64,000 bases of DNA from a virus. Location: IMG/VR virus record IMGVR_UViG_3300012347_000106, positions 4,476 through 68,475 of that record. One strand, given 5' to 3'. A program made the translations under genes and the position numbers. The notes under the pieces were generated by a model. The model was not told the DNA's origin and made no database searches. It saw nothing but the letters and a program-made list of their open reading frames with translations. Shown piece by piece: positions 4,771 through 59,089 of the stretch (position 1 is its first letter; each line of letters starts with the position of its first letter).

Positions 4771-5174
4771 AGCTCGATCCTCATCACATTGTGGGTCTTG
4801 TTCAGACCCATTTTCTCGTACATCGGGACCAAGTTGTCTTGGCACCAGCATTGTGCTTTTGTGGCCCCGTTCAGGCGCATCCACTGCATGGCTTCTTCAA
4901 ACACATGCTTGCGGACAATTGACTTTCCGCCCATCAAGTGAGCGTGTGCCACCCGGTGCATGGGCATGTCCTGAAAGCTGATCGTCACCGCGCCCGTGAT
5001 GCCTTCATTGGGCTCTTCCCAAACCAGCAGGTGGTACGCGCCAGTGCGCACACCGTATTCAACCTGCTCAATGGTGATAGCGCCGGGGTCGATGTCGATG
5101 GCTTTTTGCAGCAAAGGAGCAGCCAACGGCCAGATGGACGGCATGAGGTTTGGCGGAACTTGGTGCAGTGGCAT
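4767..5174 (-). CDS. GNAT-family N-acetyltransferase
   Basis: 135 aa. The C-terminal region (LNGATKAQ...NLVPMYEKMG) resembles the GNAT acetyl-CoA-binding motifs. It is translationally coupled on both sides within the virion-protein block. Confidence 0.55.
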   Translation of the reverse strand: MPLHQVPPNLMPSIWPLAAPLLQKAIDIDPGAITIEQVEYGVRTGAYHLLVWEEPNEGITGAVTISFQDMPMHRVAHAHLMGGKSIVRKHVFEEAMQWMRLNGATKAQCWCQDNLVPMYEKMGLNKTHNVMRIEL

Positions 5175-5176
5175 GG

Positions 5177-6574
5177 TTACACAGGCAGGAGTTTTTCGGC
5201 GCGGCTGTTGACGGCTACGCGGTCTTTGCCGACAGTCTTGGAGCGAGCCTTTTGCACGCGGTCCATCATGGCGTACAGCTTGCGTGCGCCAGCTTCGGTC
5301 GAGCCATTGCCCAACTCAGACACAATGCGCGCAGGCACCACGAACTCACCGTCCGCCAGACGGGCGGGGCGCTTTTCACCGATGGTTGCAGGGATGTCGT
5401 CAGACACACCGTCGCCGGGGCCGCGCAGCAAACGTCCGCCGTCCGAGTAGTCGCCCAGATGGCTTTGGCCACCTTGGGCCAGAGATGCAATACCGCCTTG
5501 GGCGTATCGCATGCCGCCGTTGGCCATCACGGTCTCAGCTTGGTTGCGGTCAGACATAGCCTCGACTGGGCCGGTGTCCATGAGACCACCGCCCGCCGCT
5601 GTGCGGGTGTAGATGGGGTTGAAGTAGTTGCGCTGCCCTGTGGCTGCGCCGGTATAGCCTGCTTGAGGGTCTGCAACGCGGCCGGGATCGTAGCTGTACA
5701 TCCAAGGCTTCTCGGATGGTTTTTGCGCGGCCTTCTCGGGTTCTTGCATCAACAGCGGGAGACCTGCAGCGTAGCCGTACTTCAGCAAACCCATGCCACC
5801 GCCAACACCGGTAGCTTCCACGCCCTTAGATGCGGCGTTACCCATAAAGGCTTCGCGTCCGGCTTCGGTTCCCAAGTTCTTGAAACCTTGGCCGAGCTGT
5901 GAAAACTTGTCGGCCATTGGGGTTGGGGCCGGTGTTGTTGTTGGGACTGCCGCCGCCGCATTGATGGGAGAGACTGGCGGAGCCGAAAACGCAGAAGGCT
6001 GAATGCCTTGAGCAGCCATGTCTGCTTGAAAACCTGCACCCAATTGACCGGCAGTTTGTGCGCCCATGGACGCGCCAGTAGCCCCCACCGTCGGGGTTAT
6101 GCCCTGAGCAGCCATAGAGGCCTCAAAACCTGTACCCAGTTGTGCGGCTGTCTGAGGGCCCATAGACCCCACCCCCGCAGCGCCAGCCTCTGCCGCACCA
6201 ACACCTGCAGCGCCAGCACTCATCAAACCGCCAGCCAAACCCGCACCGCCAAATGCGCCCATGCCCGCCATCAAGCCCTTGCTTAAGCTACCTGTGGCAA
6301 CGCCGTAACCAGCGCCAGTAATACCGGCAGCCATCAACGGGGTCAACGCACCGCCCGACGCAACGGACAAACCAGCGCCAATTACCATGGGCAGGATGCT
6401 CGACAGGAAGCCAGCTTCTGGCAGGCCGGTGTCTGGGTTGGTGGTCAGGGAGCCGCCATGTGCTTTGGCAAGCGCCTGCAGGCCAGCCACCTCTTGTGGG
6501 GCCATGTGGACGAGTTGAGTGTCGGGGCCACGGCCGCGAGAGGCCATGTGTTGTGCGGCAAGTTGTAGGCTCAT
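5177..6574 (-). CDS. Gly/Ala-rich virion protein (putative internal/ejection or tail-associated protein)
   Basis: 465 aa with long G/A-rich segments and a structured C-terminal domain. Part of the late operon. Confidence 0.55.
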   Translation of the reverse strand: MSLQLAAQHMASRGRGPDTQLVHMAPQEVAGLQALAKAHGGSLTTNPDTGLPEAGFLSSILPMVIGAGLSVASGGALTPLMAAGITGAGYGVATGSLSKGLMAGMGAFGGAGLAGGLMSAGAAGVGAAEAGAAGVGSMGPQTAAQLGTGFEASMAAQGITPTVGATGASMGAQTAGQLGAGFQADMAAQGIQPSAFSAPPVSPINAAAAVPTTTPAPTPMADKFSQLGQGFKNLGTEAGREAFMGNAASKGVEATGVGGGMGLLKYGYAAGLPLLMQEPEKAAQKPSEKPWMYSYDPGRVADPQAGYTGAATGQRNYFNPIYTRTAAGGGLMDTGPVEAMSDRNQAETVMANGGMRYAQGGIASLAQGGQSHLGDYSDGGRLLRGPGDGVSDDIPATIGEKRPARLADGEFVVPARIVSELGNGSTEAGARKLYAMMDRVQKARSKTVGKDRVAVNSRAEKLLPV

Positions 6575-30300: not shown

Positions 30301-31818
30301 TTAGTAATACGCGGCCCGGCGGGGCTGCTGGAAAGCTTGATTATCCTCGTGGTCTGTGCTTAGACGCAACAGGCCACCTTTGCGCACGCGCATCAAGGCC
30401 AGAGTCATCGTGTCCACCTCGTCGTCGTGCTCGCCGGCCGGGAACGCCAAAATCTCCTCGACGGTCTGCGCAGCCCACGAAGTCTCGGGGAACCAGACGT
30501 GGCCGGAGGCGAACATGTCGGCTACGGCGTTGAGCCGGGCGATCTTGTCCTGACCCTTACCCGGGCTGAAGTCCTGCACAAATACGCCAGAGCGGCGCAT
30601 CTCGTCGATCAGCGGCTGACCGCTGGCTTTCGCTTCCACAATCACGCTGTCCGGCTCCCAGTCGGCGTACTGCTCGTGGGCCATGGCTTTGAGCTCGGGG
30701 AACTCATACTTGCCCTTGACCTTGTTGAGCAGAATGACGTTCTGGGTGTTGTCCTCCTCGTTATGCCACACACCCCACGTATGGCACACAGAAAAGTCCG
30801 AGCGCTGCTTGGTGGTGAGCGCCGTATCGAACGCCTGCACGGTGAAGTCAATCTTGGGCGGCATATCGCCCTTCCACCATTTAATCCATTCCCGCTTGAT
30901 GATCGCAGCCTCGGCAGCTGTTGGGTTCTGCTGGTACTGGGCATACCACTGCCACATGATGTGGTGCATCGACGCCCGAGTCTGCTGCAGGCTTTCTAGT
31001 GTCCACTGCTCTGGCCAGATGGATTTCTCGTTCTCGGTGCCCTCGTTCAGGATGGCCGGGAACTCAAACGCCTCGTAGTTGTCTCCGCCCTCGTTCATGG
31101 CAGAGTCTTTGAGCAGCCGGCCGATCAGGTCCCGCTGGTGCCACCGGGTGTGGAGTACGCAGATTTTCCCGTCTGGCATCAGACGTGTTCGCAGACCGGC
31201 ACTGAACCATTCGTAGGCGTTGTCCAGCGAGTTGGTGTTACCCGCCTTGATGTCCTGCTCGGACAACGGATCGTCAGCAATGATGAGGTGGGCACCTCGG
31301 CCGGCCAGCGCGCCGCCCACACCGATCGCAAAGTATTCACCGCCCGCAGTGGTGTTCCACTGGGCAGCCGCCTTGGCGTCACTTGCAATCTTGGTGTTCG
31401 GGAAAATTCGGGCGTATTCCGGAGAGTTAATCAGGTTCCGCACCTTGCGTGCCATGACAATCGCCAAGTCAGCAGTGTGGGACGCCACGATCACCTTGTG
31501 GTCCGGGTGCCGGCCGAGGTACCAAGCGGGGTAGTAGATGGAGATCATCTGGGACTTGCCCATACGCGGCGCCATGCTCACGGCGATCCGGTTTTTGATG
31601 TTCTCCTCCACATCCATCAGGAGGGAGCCCAGCCTTTTGAGGTGGGCACCGAATTTGTAGCTCTTGTCGACCGCCGCAATGAACGCAAGGAAGTCATCCT
31701 GCGCCGCCTGCACAGATTTACGCTCTTCGAGCTCATCAAACATGGCCAGCAGCTCCGCCGCCTCGGCATGAGGCATGCTTTTCACCAATTTTTCGACGAT
31801 TGCGGGCGTGAGCTGCAT
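30301..31818 (-). CDS. terL: terminase large subunit
   Basis: 505 aa with an N-terminal ATPase region (Walker A-like) and a C-terminal nuclease-type acidic motifs (IIADDP, HEDNQ). Conserved TerL architecture, directly upstream of the portal. Confidence 0.85.
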   Translation of the reverse strand: MQLTPAIVEKLVKSMPHAEAAELLAMFDELEERKSVQAAQDDFLAFIAAVDKSYKFGAHLKRLGSLLMDVEENIKNRIAVSMAPRMGKSQMISIYYPAWYLGRHPDHKVIVASHTADLAIVMARKVRNLINSPEYARIFPNTKIASDAKAAAQWNTTAGGEYFAIGVGGALAGRGAHLIIADDPLSEQDIKAGNTNSLDNAYEWFSAGLRTRLMPDGKICVLHTRWHQRDLIGRLLKDSAMNEGGDNYEAFEFPAILNEGTENEKSIWPEQWTLESLQQTRASMHHIMWQWYAQYQQNPTAAEAAIIKREWIKWWKGDMPPKIDFTVQAFDTALTTKQRSDFSVCHTWGVWHNEEDNTQNVILLNKVKGKYEFPELKAMAHEQYADWEPDSVIVEAKASGQPLIDEMRRSGVFVQDFSPGKGQDKIARLNAVADMFASGHVWFPETSWAAQTVEEILAFPAGEHDDEVDTMTLALMRVRKGGLLRLSTDHEDNQAFQQPRRAAYY

Positions 31819-33281: not shown

Positions 33282-33325
33282 AAGGGCGCAAGCCCTTGCC
33301 GCCCGGCTTCGGCCGGGCTTTTTTT
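33282..33325 (+). terminator. tandem-hairpin intrinsic terminator
   Basis: AAGGGCgcaaGCCCTT, then GCCCGGCttcgGCCGGGC, followed by TTTTTTT. Confidence 0.7.
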
Positions 33326-33475
33326 CGCCTGTACTTTTTGGAGCCCGAGTTTCCCCACGTCTGTGGGGAAACGTCATAGTAGTGCGACCGTGCGGGAGAG
33401 TGAGCGGGAGTACACGCAGCCGAGTGTGAGGGAGTGGCAGGCACCGGGCGACCGCAGCGCCGGGCCGCCGAAAAG

Positions 33476-33491
33476 TTTTAAGCTTAAAAGT
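33476..33491. repeat. palindromic early-region motif copy (variant TTTTAAGCTTAAAAG)
   Basis: Member of the CTTTTAAGGTTAAAAG family. Confidence 0.6.
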
Positions 33492-33613
33492 ATTGCCTTG
33501 TTGTTGTTGCGGAACAGACGTACAAAAAATCAGGGTGCGTTACAAAACCCCTGTATCAGAACTAAAGCAAAATAGCCCACGGAAAAACTGCAATGAAATC
33601 AACAACTTACAGC

Positions 33614-33630
33614 AGAGAGAGAGAGAGAGA
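33614..33630. repeat. (GA)8-9 dinucleotide microsatellite
   Basis: agagagagagagagaga inside the inverted-repeat-bounded element. Confidence 0.8.
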
Positions 33631-33715
33631 TTAGATATTTATTTGTTTATTGTTACTGATGTACAGGCTTTTAGGTATGAAAAGCTAGGAAAGGTCTTTG
33701 GCTCATTGGCAGAAG

Positions 33716-33730
33716 TTTTAATGTTAAAAG
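33716..33730. repeat. palindromic early-region motif copy (variant TTTTAATGTTAAAAG)
   Basis: Inside the inverted-repeat-bounded element. Confidence 0.6.
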
Positions 33731-33962
33731 TTTGGCCCGGTCAAGGGGTCTCTGGCAGGCTCCACAACCCCTGTATCCACGTCACCGTGAAGATAATAGC
33801 ACCCCCGTTCTCCTCAACCCCCTGTGTTTGTGGGGCTTCCACGCAATCACTTTACATTCCTTGTATCGTAGCAACTTTCCCCATTTGTGTACATCTGTTC
33901 CGCAACAACAACCAGCGAACCCGTGATATACTGGGCACCCCAACAACCAGTCAAGGACTACT

Positions 33963-34763
33963 ATGACCGACCCCATGACCTCCATCACCCTCGAAATCCC
34001 CACCGCCGTGGCCCACAAAATCTCCGAGACTGCCCCCGGCACCCTTGCAGAGACGGCACTCATCGCCCTGCGACTCTACCACGGCTTGGGACTCGACGCC
34101 CGCACCACACTCACCGAGCTGGCCACACACCACAGCCTCACCCCTGCCAAAACCCTGCGACTTGCCATTGAGCAACTGAAGGCGGACACCACACGCTTGC
34201 AGCTTGGTACGGGCACGGCTGGCCGACCCATTGTGAACGGCGACCGTGATGCAGATATATATGCCAAGACCCGGACAGGCATCACCCATGCCACCATCGC
34301 CGCTGCGTACGGCATCTCCCTCGTGCGCGTTGGGCAGATCGTGGCCAAGCAACGTGCCATAAATAAGGACACTACCAAACGGGCGACCCGCACCGCCAAT
34401 GACCCGTGGAATATCGGATTAGCTATGGACGCTGGCCTGAGCGCCGAGGCCGCTGCCGCCCGATACAACCTGACTGTGGACGAAGTGGCCGAACGATACG
34501 CCGCCTACCGCGCCAACTTGCCAGCCAACCCCAACATGCTCGACAAGATCAACGCCGGGCGCACCGCAGAGTCTTCGACTCAGGCAGCGTCTTCAACACA
34601 GGAAGTTTTAACCTTAAAAGAACCACCACGCAAACTGGCAGTCATCCCACCATCCATGAGGAACCCTGAACTGTTCGCAGAGGCCAAGCCGATCAAAATC
34701 CCTGACCCAGCCACAGTGGACATGTCCATGTTTGACCCAAACAACCCAGACTTCGCCATCTAA
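33963..34763 (+). CDS. early protein with HTH-like segment, putative DNA-binding regulator
   Basis: 266 aa with an AAGGA SD. The helix-turn-helix-like stretch ATIAAAYGISLVRVGQIVAKQ and a second AARYNLTVDEVAERYAAY segment. Confidence 0.5.
   Translation: MTDPMTSITLEIPTAVAHKISETAPGTLAETALIALRLYHGLGLDARTTLTELATHHSLTPAKTLRLAIEQLKADTTRLQLGTGTAGRPIVNGDRDADIYAKTRTGITHATIAAAYGISLVRVGQIVAKQRAINKDTTKRATRTANDPWNIGLAMDAGLSAEAAAARYNLTVDEVAERYAAYRANLPANPNMLDKINAGRTAESSTQAASSTQEVLTLKEPPRKLAVIPPSMRNPELFAEAKPIKIPDPATVDMSMFDPNNPDFAI
34606..34620. repeat. palindromic early-region motif copy (reverse orientation TTTTAACCTTAAAAG), inside a CDS
   Basis: Inside the 3' part of gene 33963..34763. Confidence 0.6.
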
Positions 34764-34775
34764 GGAGCCATTACT

Positions 34776-35027
34776 ATGACAACACCCGCCCCGACCTTTC
34801 ACACCATCGAGCTTGACCTTCCCCTTGATGTGGCCGATGAACTAGCTGCCAAGGCTGGCAGTGTCGATGCTGCCGTGGTTCACGCCCTGCAGGAATACCT
34901 CAAAACCGACTACAACTACAGGGACAAGGTCATCAAACACGTGCACAGCGTAGGCAAAACCGTGGAGGCCATAGCCCGAATCTATGCCATGAGCGAAGCC
35001 GACATCACTGCAATCATCAACAGCTAA
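34776..35027 (+). CDS. hypothetical small protein
   Basis: 83 aa with an AAGGAG SD. Confidence 0.5.
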   Translation: MTTPAPTFHTIELDLPLDVADELAAKAGSVDAAVVHALQEYLKTDYNYRDKVIKHVHSVGKTVEAIARIYAMSEADITAIINS

Positions 35028-35035
35028 GCCAAAAT

Positions 35036-35055
35036 GGGCCCTCTACGGAGGGCCC
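35036..35055. terminator. GC-rich hairpin (GGGCCCTC-tacg-GAGGGCCC), terminator-like
   Basis: Perfect 8-bp stem just after the stop of 34776..35027. No strong T-run on the plus strand and a weak one on the minus strand. Confidence 0.4.
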
Positions 35056-35074
35056 AAACCCCACCGAAATAGCT

Positions 35075-35103
35075 TGACATATATAGGTATTTGTGATAGA
35101 ATA
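35075..35103 (+). promoter_or_regulatory. early promoter P2, sigma70-like (TTGACA-17-TAGAAT)
   Basis: Same architecture and TATA-rich spacer as P1. Confidence 0.65.
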
Positions 35104-35598
35104 CATATATCGAGTTGAGCATCGTCTCCACTTTACAGCCAGCCTTATCCATGTGCGGCTCATGTTCGTTAACAACCCAGATACCGTTAGGATTAACCAT
35201 AACTTTTAAGGTTAAAGGTTTTCCGATCAAGCCGCCGTTGCACAAGCAAAAGTCGTGTACTAGGAATTACGCCAGACAGAGGGACAGCCACCAAGCATCC
35301 CCGACATGGATATGAGATCAGTCCCCACAGACGAGAAGGCGTCCCGTATAGCCGGGGCATGAGTGTGGAGTACGAGTAGTGTGATGAACATCACCGAAGA
35401 GGAAAGCACCATGCAATGCAAACGCATACTACTTAAATGGTCGGGTTCCTCTGTCAGAAATGAGCCATGAACCCTTGGGGGTGGGACAGCCACCGTGCTG
35501 GATATATCACCCCGACGCAACCTATCGTAGTCCAAGATATTTATATATCTTTCAGCGCATGGGCAACCGTGCGCTGTTGAATATGTAAGGAGAAACAC
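35104..35598 (+). ncRNA. candidate promoter-proximal noncoding RNA / long structured leader (about 490 nt)
   Basis: No credible ORF (the 66-73 aa ORFs have poor composition). It lies downstream of P2, contains one palindromic motif copy (about 35204-35218) and a duplicated GGGACAGCCACC box (about 35282 and about 35482). Confidence 0.3.
35204..35218. repeat. palindromic early-region motif copy
   Basis: TTTTAAGGTTAAAGG in the P2 leader. Confidence 0.6.
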
Positions 35599-35868
35599 AT
35601 GAACGAATACATCTGGGAGTGGCAGCAAGGTGACGGCGACCACATCTGGCTGAGAGATTTTTCAGGGCGACTGGCCCAAGAACGCAACAACAACTCAAGC
35701 TCGGTTGGGTACATCGAGCCGACCAAAGATGGCTGGCTCATAGCATCGTGGAACCCGCACAAGGAGATTGCAACGCTGCCGGACACGATGACCAAGGGTG
35801 AAGTCATGACCGTAGCCAAGACAATACTTTTAAGCTTAAAGCAAACTGGAAGTGAGGGAAGAGAATGA
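35599..35868 (+). CDS. hypothetical early protein
   Basis: 89 aa with an AAGGAG SD. Confidence 0.5.
   Translation: MNEYIWEWQQGDGDHIWLRDFSGRLAQERNNNSSSVGYIEPTKDGWLIASWNPHKEIATLPDTMTKGEVMTVAKTILLSLKQTGSEGRE
35827..35841. repeat. palindromic early-region motif copy (variant CTTTTAAGCTTAAAG)
   Basis: Just upstream of the 35865 start. Confidence 0.55.
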
Positions 35869-36131: not shown

Positions 36132-36367
36132 ACTACTACTGGAGGAACGACGCTCGCACCCCACGCCAGCACTGGTTGCACGTTGACCCCGAAAACATAA
36201 TGATGAGAGTGGCAGGGCTGGTGTATGAGGTCACGCCCGATTCGTTCAGCGTATACGGCGAGGACTTCGAGAAGAACCCCTACGCCCGCAAGTTCCTCGG
36301 CACCATGCCTACGCTCGAAGAAGCCAAGGACATGCTGGTCACCATCACGGCCAGCCAAAACCTTTAA
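36128..36367 (+). CDS. hypothetical early protein
   Basis: Start placed at Met56 of the track ORF 35963..36367 (ATGA overlap with the upstream stop). 79 aa. Confidence 0.45.
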   Translation: MNYYWRNDARTPRQHWLHVDPENIMMRVAGLVYEVTPDSFSVYGEDFEKNPYARKFLGTMPTLEEAKDMLVTITASQNL

Positions 36368-36376
36368 GGTTAAAAG
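36362..36376. repeat. palindromic early-region motif copy
   Basis: CTTTAAGGTTAAAAG, then t, then the ATG of 36378. Confidence 0.65.
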
Positions 36377-37413: not shown

Positions 37414-37442
37414 TAGACATGACAACCCATCGTCGGTAAAAT
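37414..37442 (+). promoter_or_regulatory. candidate promoter P3 (TAGACA-17-TAAAAT)
   Basis: Near-consensus elements with 17-nt spacing, about 25 nt upstream of gene 37465. Confidence 0.4.
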
Positions 37443-37464: not shown

Positions 37465-37944
37465 ATGAACGCAAGTTACCGACACGGACAGTCCCCACGG
37501 GGCGCACAGACCAACATCTACCGACGTTGGCAACACATGATTCAACGCTGTCATAACCCAAAGGACAGAGACTACCCCCGATATGGTGGGCGAGGTATTT
37601 CCGTATGTGATCGTTGGCGATATGCAGACGAGACGCATACTGGGTTCGAGTACTTCCTCCTCGATATGGGGCTACCACCTAGCAGGTCACACTCGATTGA
37701 CCGCAAAGAAGTGGATGGGGATTACAGCCCCGAGAATTGCCGGTGGGCTACGCCTACTGAGCAAGCCAACAACCGTCGAAGCACAAAAATGCTGACCATC
37801 GACGGCGAAACAAAACCGTTATCTGACTGGTGCAAACAATACAGCATCGGCAGTAAGACGGTACTTTACCGCCTCAAGCACAGAGGCATGACCCCTAAAG
37901 AAGCAATCACAACGCCACTTACGTGGACAAAGGAAAAATCATGA
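37465..37944 (+). CDS. putative homing-endonuclease-family DNA-binding protein (YGGRGIxVCDRW motif family)
   Basis: 159 aa. IYRRWQHMIQRCHNPKDRDYPRYGGRGISVCDRW is the signature found in stand-alone phage proteins usually annotated as HNH/homing endonucleases. AGGAG SD. Confidence 0.5.
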   Translation: MNASYRHGQSPRGAQTNIYRRWQHMIQRCHNPKDRDYPRYGGRGISVCDRWRYADETHTGFEYFLLDMGLPPSRSHSIDRKEVDGDYSPENCRWATPTEQANNRRSTKMLTIDGETKPLSDWCKQYSIGSKTVLYRLKHRGMTPKEAITTPLTWTKEKS

Positions 37945-39008
37945 GCATGTCTATCAATCTGAACCAAGCCGCCACCCTGATTCGCAATGTCGGTACGACC
38001 AATACATTGTTGCTTCGCGGCACCCCCGGCATCGGCAAATCATCCATCTTGCAGACACTCGAACGTGAACTGCCGGACTATCAAATCTGCTACATCGACG
38101 TAGCCAACCTCGACCTCGGCGATCTGGGCATGCCTGTGATCGACAAAGACACAATGGTCACCAACTACGCACCCAACGCTCGCTTCGGTGTAGGCAAGGG
38201 CCAGACACGCCCTGTCGTGCTGATGCTCGACGAGTTGGGTAAAGCGTCACGCCCTGTGCTCAACATGCTGTTGCCTGTGATTCTCGAAGGTCGCATCGGT
38301 GATGTGCCCCTGCCTACCGGCTCCATTGTGTTCGGCACAACCAACCTCGACACTGACGGCGTGGGTGACAACATCCCAGCCCATGCGTTCAACCGTATGA
38401 CTGTCGTGACTGTGGCCAACCCATCGGCCGACCAGTGGATTGACTGGGCATCGGGCCACAACGTAGCCCCCGAGGTGATGGCGTTTGCCAAGCAGTACCC
38501 GCAGGTCTTCGACTGCTATGCAGACCTCGACAAGAAAGACAAGAACCCCTACATCTTCAACCCCATGACGGGCAACGTGCGGGCCTTCTGCTCACCTCGT
38601 TCACTGGTCAAAGCATCGAACATCGTCAAGCAACGCAGTGTGCTCGGCACCTCGTTGATTCCAGCCCTCGCAGGTACTGTCGGTGAAGCCGCAGCCCGTG
38701 ACATGGAAGCCCTCGTGAATCTGGCAGATCAGTTGCCACTGTTCGAGAACATCGTGAAGGCTCCGACCAAGACCAAGGTGCCCGATAGCGTAGGTGCCCT
38801 GTTCATCCTTGCGTTCATGCTGGCAGGTCGTGTCGATGCTGACAACCTCGACCCTGTGATGGAGTACGCCGAGCGTATGTCTGCTCAGTCATTCGAGGCG
38901 CATGCCCTGTTCGTTACATCCCTTGCATCCAACCGCGCCAAGGTGGGTATGGCATGTAAGAACCGTAAGTTCACTGCCGCCGCCGCCAAGCTCGGCAAAT
39001 ACTTTTAA
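37941..39008 (+). CDS. MoxR-like AAA+ ATPase
   Basis: Walker A GTPGIGKSS, Walker B VLMLDELGK, sensor/arginine-finger region. Length and architecture fit the MoxR/CbbQ family. Confidence 0.75.
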   Translation: MSMSINLNQAATLIRNVGTTNTLLLRGTPGIGKSSILQTLERELPDYQICYIDVANLDLGDLGMPVIDKDTMVTNYAPNARFGVGKGQTRPVVLMLDELGKASRPVLNMLLPVILEGRIGDVPLPTGSIVFGTTNLDTDGVGDNIPAHAFNRMTVVTVANPSADQWIDWASGHNVAPEVMAFAKQYPQVFDCYADLDKKDKNPYIFNPMTGNVRAFCSPRSLVKASNIVKQRSVLGTSLIPALAGTVGEAAARDMEALVNLADQLPLFENIVKAPTKTKVPDSVGALFILAFMLAGRVDADNLDPVMEYAERMSAQSFEAHALFVTSLASNRAKVGMACKNRKFTAAAAKLGKYF

Positions 39009-39017
39009 GGTTAAAAG
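39002..39017. repeat. palindromic early-region motif copy
   Basis: CTTTTAAGGTTAAAAG, 14 nt before the ATG of 39031. Confidence 0.65.
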
Positions 39018-47061: not shown

Positions 47062-47553
47062 ATGCGATATGAAAATTTGACAGACGACGAACTTATCCGC
47101 GAGGCCGACGGGCAGAGCGGCCTCATCAAAGCACTGAGCGAGCGCCTTGAGATGCGACAGAAGCCACACATGACTGCATTCGAGGAGCAAGCCTTCTTCA
47201 TGCTGGCGTGTGGCCAGACGGTGCATGAGGGCAACCCGGCGCAGGCCGAGATGTATCGTGAACTGATCGACGAAGAGTTCACTGAGATGCTGCAAGCGGA
47301 AGCCGACGGCAACGAAATAGAAGAGTTCGATGCTGTGCTTGACATGATCGTTGTGCTGATCGGTTACGGCCTGTCCCGTGGCTGGCCTATGAACGAAGGC
47401 TGGGCCGAAGTCATGCGATCCAACATGGCCAAGATCGACCCGAAGACAGGCACCGTGCGCCGCCGTGAAGACGGCAAGATTCTCAAGCCCGATGGCTGGA
47501 CACCACCTGATCTGGCGTCCCTCCTCAACCCCGCACAACGCGAAATGTTTTAA
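47062..47553 (+). CDS. MazG-like all-alpha nucleoside triphosphate pyrophosphohydrolase
   Basis: EEFTEMLQAEADGNEIEEFDAVLDMIVVLIGYG matches the MazG/NTP-PPase metal-binding helix pattern. Confidence 0.5.
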   Translation: MRYENLTDDELIREADGQSGLIKALSERLEMRQKPHMTAFEEQAFFMLACGQTVHEGNPAQAEMYRELIDEEFTEMLQAEADGNEIEEFDAVLDMIVVLIGYGLSRGWPMNEGWAEVMRSNMAKIDPKTGTVRRREDGKILKPDGWTPPDLASLLNPAQREMF

Positions 47554-47563
47554 GGTTAAAAGA
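47548..47563. repeat. palindromic early-region motif copy
   Basis: GTTTTAAGGTTAAAAG, then aa, then the ATG of 47565. Confidence 0.65.
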
Positions 47564-57116: not shown

Positions 57117-57147
57117 GGCCGGGTAGGCAGCTACCCGGCCACTTTTT
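57117..57147 (+). terminator. intrinsic terminator
   Basis: GGCCGGGTAG-gcag-CTACCCGGCC hairpin followed by ACTTTTT. Confidence 0.65.
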
Positions 57148-58731: not shown

Positions 58732-59030
58732 GCAACATAATTGACTTTGCCAAGCTGAAGGAAGCCCAGAAGCCACATGCCAGCGGACAGTGCTATTGCA
58801 TGGCGTGCAGCCACGAGTGGATGGGTGTGTGGCCCGTGGGCACTACCGAAATGGAATGCCCGGAGTGCAAGAGCATGCGCGGTCGCAGCAAATACGACTA
58901 CGCCCCGGCGAAAGGTGTTCAGGTCTGGTCCTGCATGCTCTGCGGAAACCAACTATTCAATCTGCTACCAGACAGAGTGCACTGCCCCGGATGCGGTTGC
59001 CAGTGGGATTACGAAGACCTAAAGCCTTGA
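58728..59030 (+). CDS. zinc-ribbon-rich small protein
   Basis: 100 aa with several CxxC pairs (CYCMAC, CPEC, CMLC, CPGCGC). Confidence 0.5.
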   Translation: MSNIIDFAKLKEAQKPHASGQCYCMACSHEWMGVWPVGTTEMECPECKSMRGRSKYDYAPAKGVQVWSCMLCGNQLFNLLPDRVHCPGCGCQWDYEDLKP

Positions 59031-59089
59031 CACTAGTATTTGACACTGTATAATTTCAATTCGTTCAACGCAAATCAAAAGGAAATCAC

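Follow-up and report, generated by a model that had tools for sequence, protein, structure and literature searches.

A conserved structured RNA of the plus strand, with a boxA-like element near its 5' end, at the probable head of a phage early operon

The stretch of DNA analysed here, 64,000 nucleotides (nt) of IMG/VR virus record IMGVR_UViG_3300012347_000106 (the window; all coordinates are positions in it, and L-numbers denote the relative contigs that we compared), resembles a tailed-phage genome, with structural genes on the minus strand up to ~32.4 kilobases (kb) and early genes on the plus strand from ~32.7 kb. The closest cultured match to its large terminase (30301-31818) is only ~43% identical, and searches of the window DNA against the cultured phages of INPHARED by megablast and blastn returned zero matches. 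In the early region, a gap of ~570 bases separates an 83-amino-acid (aa) gene, whose relatives are labelled Mor-family regulators by JGI, from an 89-aa gene. This gap encodes an RNA of ~470 nt, and we are highly confident that it is a real, conserved structured RNA of the plus strand spanning ~35110-35580. An earlier note, made from the sequence alone, had proposed a structured non-coding RNA or regulatory leader transcribed from a promoter termed P2; this proposal is supported by covariation, by conservation, by the lack of a shared open reading frame (ORF) and by the conservation of the promoter. The locus is laid out as follows.

34776-35027, plus strand: the 83-aa gene, upstream neighbour of the RNA, with its stop at 35027
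35035-35056: GC hairpin with a perfect stem of 9 base pairs (bp), TGGGCCCTC-TACG-GAGGGCCCA, 3' of the 83-aa Mor-like gene
35074-35102, plus strand: sigma70 promoter P2, TTGACA-17-TAGAAT with a TG extended -10, conserved in relatives
35205-35216: palindrome copy TTTAAGGTTAAA, which caps a helix of the RNA (He)
35587-35592 and 35599-35601, plus strand: Shine-Dalgarno (SD) sequence AAGGAG and ATG of the first early gene, read from the sequence
35599-35868, plus strand: the 89-aa gene, first early gene downstream, with its ATG at 35599-35601

We find the gap conserved beyond its surroundings. The 83-aa protein has 85 relative clusters, and genomic contexts were fetched for 11. At every fetched locus a gene-free gap of 430-665 nt follows the homologue of the 83-aa gene, and nhmmer detects the element in all of them. 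Nucleotide identity of the region across relatives is 66-95%, and their flanking proteins are only ~50-93% identical. The viral contig L001, which has the same gene order, is ~95% identical over window positions 35178-35538 and only 70% identical in the neighbouring 266-aa protein; the first ~70 nt and the last ~60 nt of its gap diverge. Since the gap, the promoter and the gap sequence are conserved in every fetched relative, the observation exceeds chance.

Sequence scans added little to this set. Only five contigs of IMG/VR carry the element, and one of these is the distant homolog L122, which surfaced among the matches listed for a GC-rich pattern scan of viral sequences and whose genes upstream of the promoter are unrelated to the Mor-like pair. 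Two scans of viral sequences with exact 20-23-mers gave only the known contig and one chance match. A metagenome scan with the 18-mer CCGAAGAGGAAAGCACCA, a segment that belongs to just one of two alternative versions of domain Hj of the RNA, returned 52 matches, all 52 due to chance, and a literature string search for the conserved motifs found nothing but unrelated primer sequences.

The fold is carried by covariation. RNAalifold, applied to a MAFFT alignment of 17 sequences (A4), gives 74 pairs, 39 of them with compensatory changes. A refined model places 85 pairs in 18 helices; its cells are 96.1% paired, whereas shuffling gives 84.2% (0 of 500 shuffles reach the model) and sliding the partners by 1-3 columns gives 33-43%. 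Pairs with double-sided changes number 38 (23.0 shuffled, 4-10 slid), and the covariation score is 0.374 (0.153 shuffled, 0.08 or less slid). The first three sequences were already informative, through the stem of hairpin Hi, the GUGAU/AUCAC hairpin and an inserted hairpin in L021. This last is an example of the hairpins inserted at helix tips in the family; it is GNRA-capped (CCCC-GAAA-GGGG) and adjoins helix He. The folding energy of the single sequence is ordinary on both strands relative to shuffles (z = -0.16, +0.19). Two sets of long-range RNAalifold pairs (columns 57-58/352-353 and 63-65/346-348) were dropped, being invariant or partly broken, and helix Hd (UUAAC/GUUAG) is kept as tentative only, with zero covariation.

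This structure is further supported by a covariance model of the 3' domain, R1 (142 positions). R1 finds exactly one copy in the window (35411-35536, 113.8 bits) and recovers five homologs outside its building set (L090, L234, L021, L097 and L242; 103-137 bits), the distant L122 (39.9 bits, E = 6.5e-8) and a second copy in L075. The alignment obtained from R1 (A7) has 95.7% of its cells paired, and 20 of its 32 pairs are doubly changed, compared with 4-7 for slid partners. Conserved G.U pairs of A4, namely 69/90 (UG in 17/17 sequences), 268/285 (UG in 14) and 544/560 (UG in 13), are valid on the plus strand only; on the opposite strand they would be A.C, which identifies the plus strand as the RNA strand.

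The earlier note had also suggested a structure search with Rfam/Infernal and an alignment with related phages. Rfam 15, with 4227 covariance models that include Intron_gpI, group II introns, GOLLD, ROOL, OLE, HEARO, RNase P, transfer-messenger RNA (tmRNA), 6S, C4 and riboswitches, has no match in the whole window at gathering thresholds, none to 34900-35750 at E <= 10, and none to the element in nine relatives at E <= 10. The search points to no known family, and R1 together with the alignment of relatives shows conserved structure. The RNA has at least three covariation-supported domains, and its fold is uncatalogued in Rfam. Its parts, all on the plus strand, are the following.

35112-35134: helix Ha, the first 5' hairpin (A4 columns 10-16/25-32, 100% paired)
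35138-35159: hairpin Hb, GCC-A-GC...GCGGC, tentative, read from A4, in which the MAFFT alignment is imperfect there
35164-35175 (35163-35175 with the preceding U): boxA-like element GUUCGUUAACAA, supported by positional conservation
35191-35223, motif core 35205-35216: helix He, palindrome-capped (ACUUUUAAGGUUAAAGGU), with covarying closing pairs
35233-35341: central domain, made up of a closing helix, Hg, Hh and a variable-tip hairpin
35238-35249: hairpin Hg, U-A in 5 sequences and C-G in 12
35252-61 with 35320-32: long-range helix Hh, 6 of 8 pairs changed on both sides
35281-35301: variable-tip hairpin of the central domain, holding the first copy (box 1) of the duplicated sequence GGGACAGCCACC
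35342-35357: hairpin Hi, conserved loop GUAUAGCC, 3 double-changed pairs
35358-35414: domain Hj, outer stem CAUG(A)GUG/CAC-CAUG, purine-rich internal loops of AGUA/GAA type
35382-35395: inner hairpin of Hj, GUGAUG-AA-CAUCAC, with GUGAU/AUCAC becoming GUGGC/GCCAC in the family
35416-35531: 3' domain, described by R1
35416-27: hairpin Hk, tentative, zero covariation
35428-32 with 35527-31: helix A, ACUAC/GUAGU, covarying
35439-42 with 35519-22: helix B, after the internal loop YUAAAU/UAUC
35443-35474: hairpin C of the 3' domain, with an invariant GAAA tetraloop
35477-35513: hairpin E, GUGG/CCAC, containing the second GGGACAGCCACC copy (box 2); GUCGG/CCGAC in L122
35535-35550: hairpin F, AGAUAU-UUAU-AUAUCU, in other lineages GGA-CACCUC...GAGGUG-...UCC
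35553-35576: hairpin G, CAGCGCAUGG-GCAA-CCGUGCGCUG, 5 double-changed pairs

Covariation is spread over these parts unevenly. Ha has one double-changed pair and several G-C/G-U alternations. Hb is compensatory in L001 (GCG-A-CC...GGCGC) and wholly absent in L094, and is dispensable on that account. The closing pair of He (A4 91/139) is GC in 12 sequences and AU in 5; the helix that closes the central domain, CGCC/GGCG (35233-36 with 35338-41), is invariant and therefore uninformative. The stem of Hi, CCCG/CGGG in the window, is AAGG/CCUU, AGG/CCU or GGG/CCC elsewhere around the unchanged loop GUAUAGCC, and its U.G closing pair is valid on the plus strand only. Domain Hj exists in two alternative versions, which MAFFT leaves unaligned; read directly from the sequences, its outer stem varies as CAUGUGA/UCACAUG, AUGAAG/CUUCAU, AUAUUG/CAAUAU and CAUCG/CGAUG, and its internal loops are of a kind that we take to resemble loop E. 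Helix A is GUAC/GUAC in L075 and L089, ACUGC/GCAGU in L097 and GGUGC/GCACC in L122. Some relatives have an optional extra hairpin between C and E in the junction of the 3' domain, and the domain includes the sequence CUAUCGUAGUCCAAGG in relatives without an HNH gene. As we read the alignment, hairpin G could also be lengthened by pairing with the 3' arm of F. No terminator-like site is scored at F or G in the window, L001 or L086.

The conserved feature of the gap is not a protein. No ORF is conserved in frame across the relatives: ORFs of at least 30 aa sit in different columns in each relative, L094 has just two of them, and each relative has 4-17 indel runs that are not multiples of three, and such lengths make up the majority of the indels. 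A conserved translated small protein, which would have spoken against the earlier note's proposal, is not what the relatives show. That note had described the ORFs of the gap as 66-73 aa long and of poor composition; the non-coding assessment holds, and the size limit does not, as a GTG-started ORF of 127 aa lies on the minus strand at 35260-35643, its frame broken in L021. As a protein query this ORF retrieves P0001, a 162-aa public metagenome call that lies antisense in L021 (234-722 of a 904-nt contig). The P0001 "protein" switches frame relative to the window, which argues against coding, and P0001 is a spurious ORF filling a structured-RNA locus. The conserved gap should be annotated as an RNA gene or leader and not filled with spurious ORFs.

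Upstream of the RNA, the sequence and spacing of P2 are as the earlier note had given them, at coordinates one base lower (35074-35102 instead of 35075-35103). The pattern TTGAC-N17-(TG)nTAnAnT is kept in 23/23 sequences, with a spacer that varies in sequence. The window has 4 promoter-like matches of this kind against 5.3 expected, and the P2 match taken alone is not above chance. From the position of the promoter, transcription would start at ~35109-35111. Downstream, the SD sequence AAGGAG and the coding sequence at 35599 are confirmed, and in most relatives a second copy of the palindrome occupies the canonical SD position ahead of the first early gene. No terminator-like or promoter-like site is scored between the RNA and the downstream genes in the window, L001 or L086. 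Plus-strand terminator-like sites are absent from 35.1-40 kb, the first strong one being at 57117-57140, and besides P2 the plus strand has only weaker promoter-like sites, at 37414 and 51482, ahead of the perfect one at 59027. With no intervening terminator-like site until 57117, P2 appears to drive a unit of ~22 kb, and the RNA is most likely the untranslated leader of this putative rightward early operon.

The terminator at 57117-57140 consists of GGCCGGGTAGGCAGCTACCCGGCC followed by a T-run, and ~1.9 kb further on lies the perfect TTGACA-16-TATAAT promoter (59027-59054). Probably the P2 unit ends at the first of these sites and another unit begins at the second.

The palindrome in helix He, which the earlier note had seen as a motif copy in the gap and which we confirm at 35205-35216, is one of a larger set. 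The motif ACTTTTAAGGTTAAAAGT (ACTTTTAA-NN-TTAAAAGT) occurs in 14 copies in the early region only, at gene junctions between window positions 33477 and 53457 (examples at 35829-35840, 36363-36374, 39004-39015 and 47549-47560), and scores 27 strand-hits against 0.3 expected. Its copies often supply the final codons of the gene upstream (..LLSLKQ..), and the next ATG follows after 3-25 nt. One copy caps He in every relative, and most relatives add a second immediately ahead of the first gene. The junction palindrome of L122 is GTCTAAnnTTAGAC (GTCTAA-NN-TTAGAC; 5540-5560, 5380-5395, 5030-5050), and the He position carries that contig's own palindrome, UCUAAUGUUAGA, changed like its junction copies. 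Parallel change of this kind suggests that a phage-specific factor reads either the hairpin or the corresponding DNA and that the RNA has kept a site for it; the RNA is probably bound by the same factor as the junction hairpins. The palindrome may be a protein-binding site, a processing site or a recombination boundary, and the link between the RNA and the junction hairpins could reveal how these phages organise or process their early transcripts.

boxA recruits NusB-NusE, which renders RNA polymerase Rho-resistant on untranslated RNA. In 20/20 homologs, we find that GCUCUUUAACAA is matched best at one homologous position of the leader, with 0-3 mismatches. L076, L077 and L094 carry UGCUCUUUAACAAU, identical over 14 nt to the Escherichia coli rrnG boxA and the start of its spacer, and 0 of 2000 shuffles do as well as these exact matches in three homologs. 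The boxA position coincides with an invariant block, G..C.UUAA.AA, ~55-65 nt 3' of the -10, after which come ~430 nt of untranslated RNA. Reference boxA sequences are UGCUCUUUA for rrn, CACugcucuuuaacaauuua for rrnG with its spacer and CGCUCUUA for lambda (PMC2724277, Table 1), and boxA shields other long untranslated RNAs from Rho, as in ribosomal RNA (rRNA) and CRISPR arrays (PMC7665894).

Our preferred reading, to which we give about even odds (roughly 0.5), is that the gap specifies an untranslated early-operon leader in which a boxA module for Nus-factor antitermination is followed by a new ornate RNA. Host sigma70 RNA polymerase would initiate at P2, a promoter shown by its conservation and with a predicted start. 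The boxA would emerge ~55-65 nt from the transcript's start, just after one or two small hairpins, and, as its sequence identity and position and the analogy with rrn leaders and lambda nut suggest, would recruit host NusB-NusE(S10) together with NusA and NusG for Rho-resistant elongation. Such resistance would be needed because ~490 nt of untranslated RNA precede the first gene and no terminator-like site or comparable sigma70-like promoter was found after it on the plus strand until ~57.1 kb. The remaining ~400 nt would then fold into the multi-domain RNA, and the palindrome hairpin of He might be bound, in the manner of boxB, by the phage-specific factor that reads the junction hairpins. 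With a boxA of textbook type where a phage early operon begins, the mechanism of the RNA has an unusually clear handle, and one can test directly whether a phage outside the lambdoid group borrows the antitermination machinery of rRNA synthesis.

Several points weigh against this reading. The boxA of the window has 2 mismatches and alone is not significant (~1.4 such matches are expected in 128 kb), and those of L086 and L087 have 3; the support for boxA comes from positional conservation and not from the window match alone. Its 3' half could instead pair with GUUAG (columns 69-73/86-90), in a helix with zero covariation. Recognition of the candidate boxA by host NusB/E is a prediction from sequence, as are the start, 3' end and processing of the RNA. 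Searches of the adjacent small proteins with Pfam and PHROGs found no N-like arginine-rich protein beside the leader, the first downstream gene differs between relatives, and the palindrome could be a DNA operator instead of an RNA hairpin. Finally, the boxA module accounts for ~15 nt only, and not for the ~400 nt of conserved structure.

The comparison with known antitermination leaders brings out both the likeness and this excess. Like the rrn leader, ordered boxB-boxA-boxC, and lambda nutL/nutR, ordered boxA-spacer-boxB, the RNA is a promoter-proximal untranslated boxA leader before a long transcription unit; like the rrn leader, it has small hairpins upstream of boxA and a large structured untranslated RNA downstream. 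A phage-specific hairpin downstream of boxA recalls lambda boxB. However, the distance from boxA to this hairpin is ~30 nt, compared with 8-9 nt in lambda, the hairpin is an AU-rich palindrome of 7-8 bp and not a GNRA-like pentaloop, it recurs ~14 times along the operon, and no recognisable N-like family is found among the adjacent small proteins. The defining features of a lambda nut site are absent, and the ~400 nt of extra conserved structure have no counterpart in rrn or nut. HK022 put is similarly a cis-acting structured RNA just after a phage early promoter, with two 5' stem-loops comparable to Ha and Hb, and it acts on RNA polymerase over many kilobases (PMC9378689), an action that for our RNA is a proposal only. 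It differs in being ~70 nt long, confined to lambdoid phages and independent of boxA and Nus factors, and it binds the zinc-binding domain of the RNA polymerase beta' subunit; here boxA is present, Hb is absent in L094, and no sequence similarity to put was seen.

Phage P4 CI RNA and P1/P7 c4 RNA are regulatory RNAs of ~70-80 nt that are processed from the leader of the operon they control and act by antisense pairing to repeated targets in the same transcript. The present RNA differs in that Rfam C4 does not match it and no repeated complementary targets were found. GOLLD, ROOL and OLE, ornate RNAs of bacteria and phages, are closer in scale; like the present RNA, they run to several hundred nucleotides, have many covarying helices but no assigned function, and came to light only through comparative analysis (PMC12286853; PMC5737381). 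Homo-oligomeric assembly from RNA alone marks the GOLLD/ROOL kind. Unlike them, our RNA has no Rfam match, is not near transfer RNA (tRNA) genes (no tRNA or tmRNA gene was found in the window) and lies at an early operon start behind a boxA. The RNA appears to belong to none of the rrn/nut, putRNA, GOLLD or ROOL families.

We consider it somewhat short of an even bet that the ~400-nt body downstream of boxA represents a new class of large functional phage RNA, of GOLLD/ROOL- or ribozyme-like complexity and with a job of its own. On this reading the phage would have taken over a host system of the rRNA type, in which boxA serves antitermination and chaperoning, to make and fold the RNA. Candidate roles are an assembly made of RNA alone, the capture of a host or defence factor by a decoy or scaffold as infection begins, and partnership with the factor that reads the junction hairpins. 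Large, intricately folded RNAs are rare, and each new class (ribozymes, riboswitches, OLE, GOLLD, ROOL) has opened new biology; at ~470 nt, this one offers a well-defined substrate for structural work.

The main rival to the boxA leader, with which it is compatible, is a stand-alone ornate RNA acting in trans, formed when a core of ~370 nt between the palindrome hairpins is cut from the leader; boxA would then serve only to secure full transcription and correct folding, as for rRNA. It might assemble from RNA alone, hold or divert a protein of the host or of a defence system as scaffold or decoy, or be a ribozyme with a trans substrate. We regard this as possible, though on balance doubtful. 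The RNA is larger and has more covarying helices than known antitermination leaders need, its invariant GAAA tetraloop and long unpaired runs without variation likewise go beyond such a need, and in the relatives the core is bracketed by two junction hairpins, resembling a gene cassette. The RNA is also transcribed first, from the strongest early promoter, and the first transcribed early position is a typical place for takeover or anti-defence functions. By comparison, putRNA is ~70 nt (PMC9378689), boxA precedes other structured or untranslated RNA genes such as rRNA and CRISPR arrays (PMC7665894), and phage-encoded GOLLD and ROOL are a precedent for large RNAs (PMC12286853). On the other side, no terminator is scored at a discrete 3' end, the cut at the palindromes is hypothetical, the downstream genes appear dependent on read-through from P2, and the partner of such an RNA is hypothetical only.

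An unlikely alternative is a very large leader of the riboswitch or attenuator type, which would sense a ligand or protein and set early expression through the choice between hairpin F and an extended G. The element does lie directly upstream of the first early gene, its highly conserved unpaired nucleotides offer a possible binding pocket, and the F/extended-G alternative, as read from the alignment, persists with other sequences (CAUC/GAUG, AUAUC/GAUGU, AUAU/AUAU). That pairing is a proposal from reading, however, and L075 and L089 have entirely different 3' hairpins. Neither the window nor the nine relatives match an Rfam aptamer at E <= 10, and there is neither a terminator-like site nor a consistent SD-sequestering helix: the AAGGAG of the window is free, and in relatives the palindrome stands in its place.

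The size of the RNA, its GNRA tetraloops, its CAGAC..ACUAC and UAUCGUAGUCC motifs, which we take to resemble the R and S elements of group I introns, and the HNH_3 gene inside or behind the element in L075 and L089, where the 3' domain is duplicated, might instead suggest a self-splicing or mobile ribozyme, that is, a group I-like intron with an HNH homing endonuclease. We consider this very improbable. Ten sequences were searched with the Rfam models for Intron_gpI and group II introns, and none matches even at E <= 10. By covariation, helix A encloses helix B and three hairpins in a nested arrangement, not a P3/P7 pseudoknot, and no covarying partner was found for the P3-like strand. No gene is interrupted and there are no exons: the 5' end of the element lies at a promoter, and the ORFs on either side are whole and separate. 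An endonuclease is missing from most relatives, and an ORF from most copies. The HNH pattern is that of a free-standing homing endonuclease with a conserved RNA gene as its target. A group I intron was rejected on topology and on Rfam.

In both contigs (L075 1847-3073, L089 2626-3722) the HNH_3 endonuclease gene comes after a diverged copy of the 3' half of the RNA, in which helix A is GUAC/GUAC, and a second copy of the 3' domain follows or overlaps the HNH end (L075 2860-2987, 54 bits). The arrangement looks like a free-standing homing endonuclease that has invaded the RNA gene and carries a cleavage-resistant variant of its target. A comparison of the L075 HNH with the HNH of the window (37465-37944) found no close relationship.

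The idea that small proteins or a leader peptide are what is conserved, either a plus-strand ORF from AUGCAAU at 35411 or a hydrophobic 55-aa ORF on the minus strand, has very little probability. AUGCAAU is invariant in 17/17 sequences, the SD-like GAGGAAAG precedes it at a suitable distance in the window lineage, and the minus-strand ORF (MRLHCMVLSSS...) is common to L001. The ORF at 35411, however, has only 9-21 codons and a moving stop, half of the lineages have no SD, and it overlaps helices in which changes are compensated 100-130 nt away and are not synonymous. The minus-strand ORF is frame-shifted in L021, and no ORF of at least 30 aa occupies the same columns across all relatives; a leader peptide at 35411 is not what is conserved. 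Least probable of all is a DNA-level element (an operator cluster, replication origin or packaging site), for which the genome-wide palindrome as a possible protein-binding DNA site and the adjoining Mor-like helix-turn-helix (HTH) genes could speak, since compensatory Watson-Crick and G.U changes up to ~110 nt apart and the strand asymmetry are an RNA signature, and iterons or an AT-rich unwinding region are missing here, such features lying in the gap at 33330-33962.

The duplicated box GGGACAGCCACC, to which the earlier note had drawn attention, is present at 35281-35292 and 35483-35494, 202 nt apart. Its significance did not hold up, as two or more matches occur in 10 of 100 shuffles, and the two boxes are found together only in the window, L001 and L021, where box 1 is the variable tip of a hairpin and box 2 part of hairpin E. 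The pair is restricted to three sequences and is not a family feature. With the duplicated box lineage-specific and the palindrome genome-wide, these cues do not carry the signal, although the palindrome does sit at a conserved position of the RNA. A scan of genome contigs for two GGGACAGCCACC boxes 175-205 nt apart gave 18 unrelated repeat loci, which are REP-like hairpins by RAYT-like genes or coding repeats, and was discarded. In these contigs (L003, L005, L009, L011, L015, L016, L017), which come from very different bacterial phyla, GGGACAGCCACC lies at the centre of short hairpin-forming repeats whose flanking arms differ from species to species, and some of the repeats adjoin genes starting MPR..R..PG.PHH..QRGN, with resemblance to RAYT/IS200-like transposases. 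Together they may make up a REP-like family of wide distribution; to the phage RNA they are unrelated.

The GC hairpin at 35035-35056 had been read in the earlier note as the terminator of the preceding gene. A U-tract is absent on the plus strand, and the hairpin scores as a terminator for the minus strand only (T-run TTTTGGCTTA); it would therefore stop antisense transcription and not the upstream gene. Relatives have a hairpin at this position with other stem sequences (GGGGGC/GCCCCC), and in the L079 lineage the -35 box of P2 lies within the corresponding hairpin.

Searches of the small neighbouring proteins with Pfam and PHROGs gave only weak Mor/HTH hints. The first genes 3' of the RNA differ among close relatives (window 35599-35868, L001 7682-8214), and these unrelated proteins end in common C-terminal residues (AKTILLSLKQTGSE), a consequence of conservation in the palindrome and its flank. 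The pattern suggests that early genes are shuffled at the palindromes in the manner of cassettes.

We further note a second conserved ORF-free gap of ~650 nt (33290-33965), upstream of the 266-aa Mor-like gene. It holds, in order, a strong terminator (33301-33318), a conserved hairpin with the block CGUCAUAGUAGUGCGACCGUGGGGGAGAG, G-rich GNGNG repeats, a (GA)8 run and an AT-rich stretch, as well as palindromes at 33477 and 33717 and a -10-like box, TGATATACT, near the start of the gene. RNAalifold finds little consistent structure there, and the gap could be a replication origin or a complex regulatory region.

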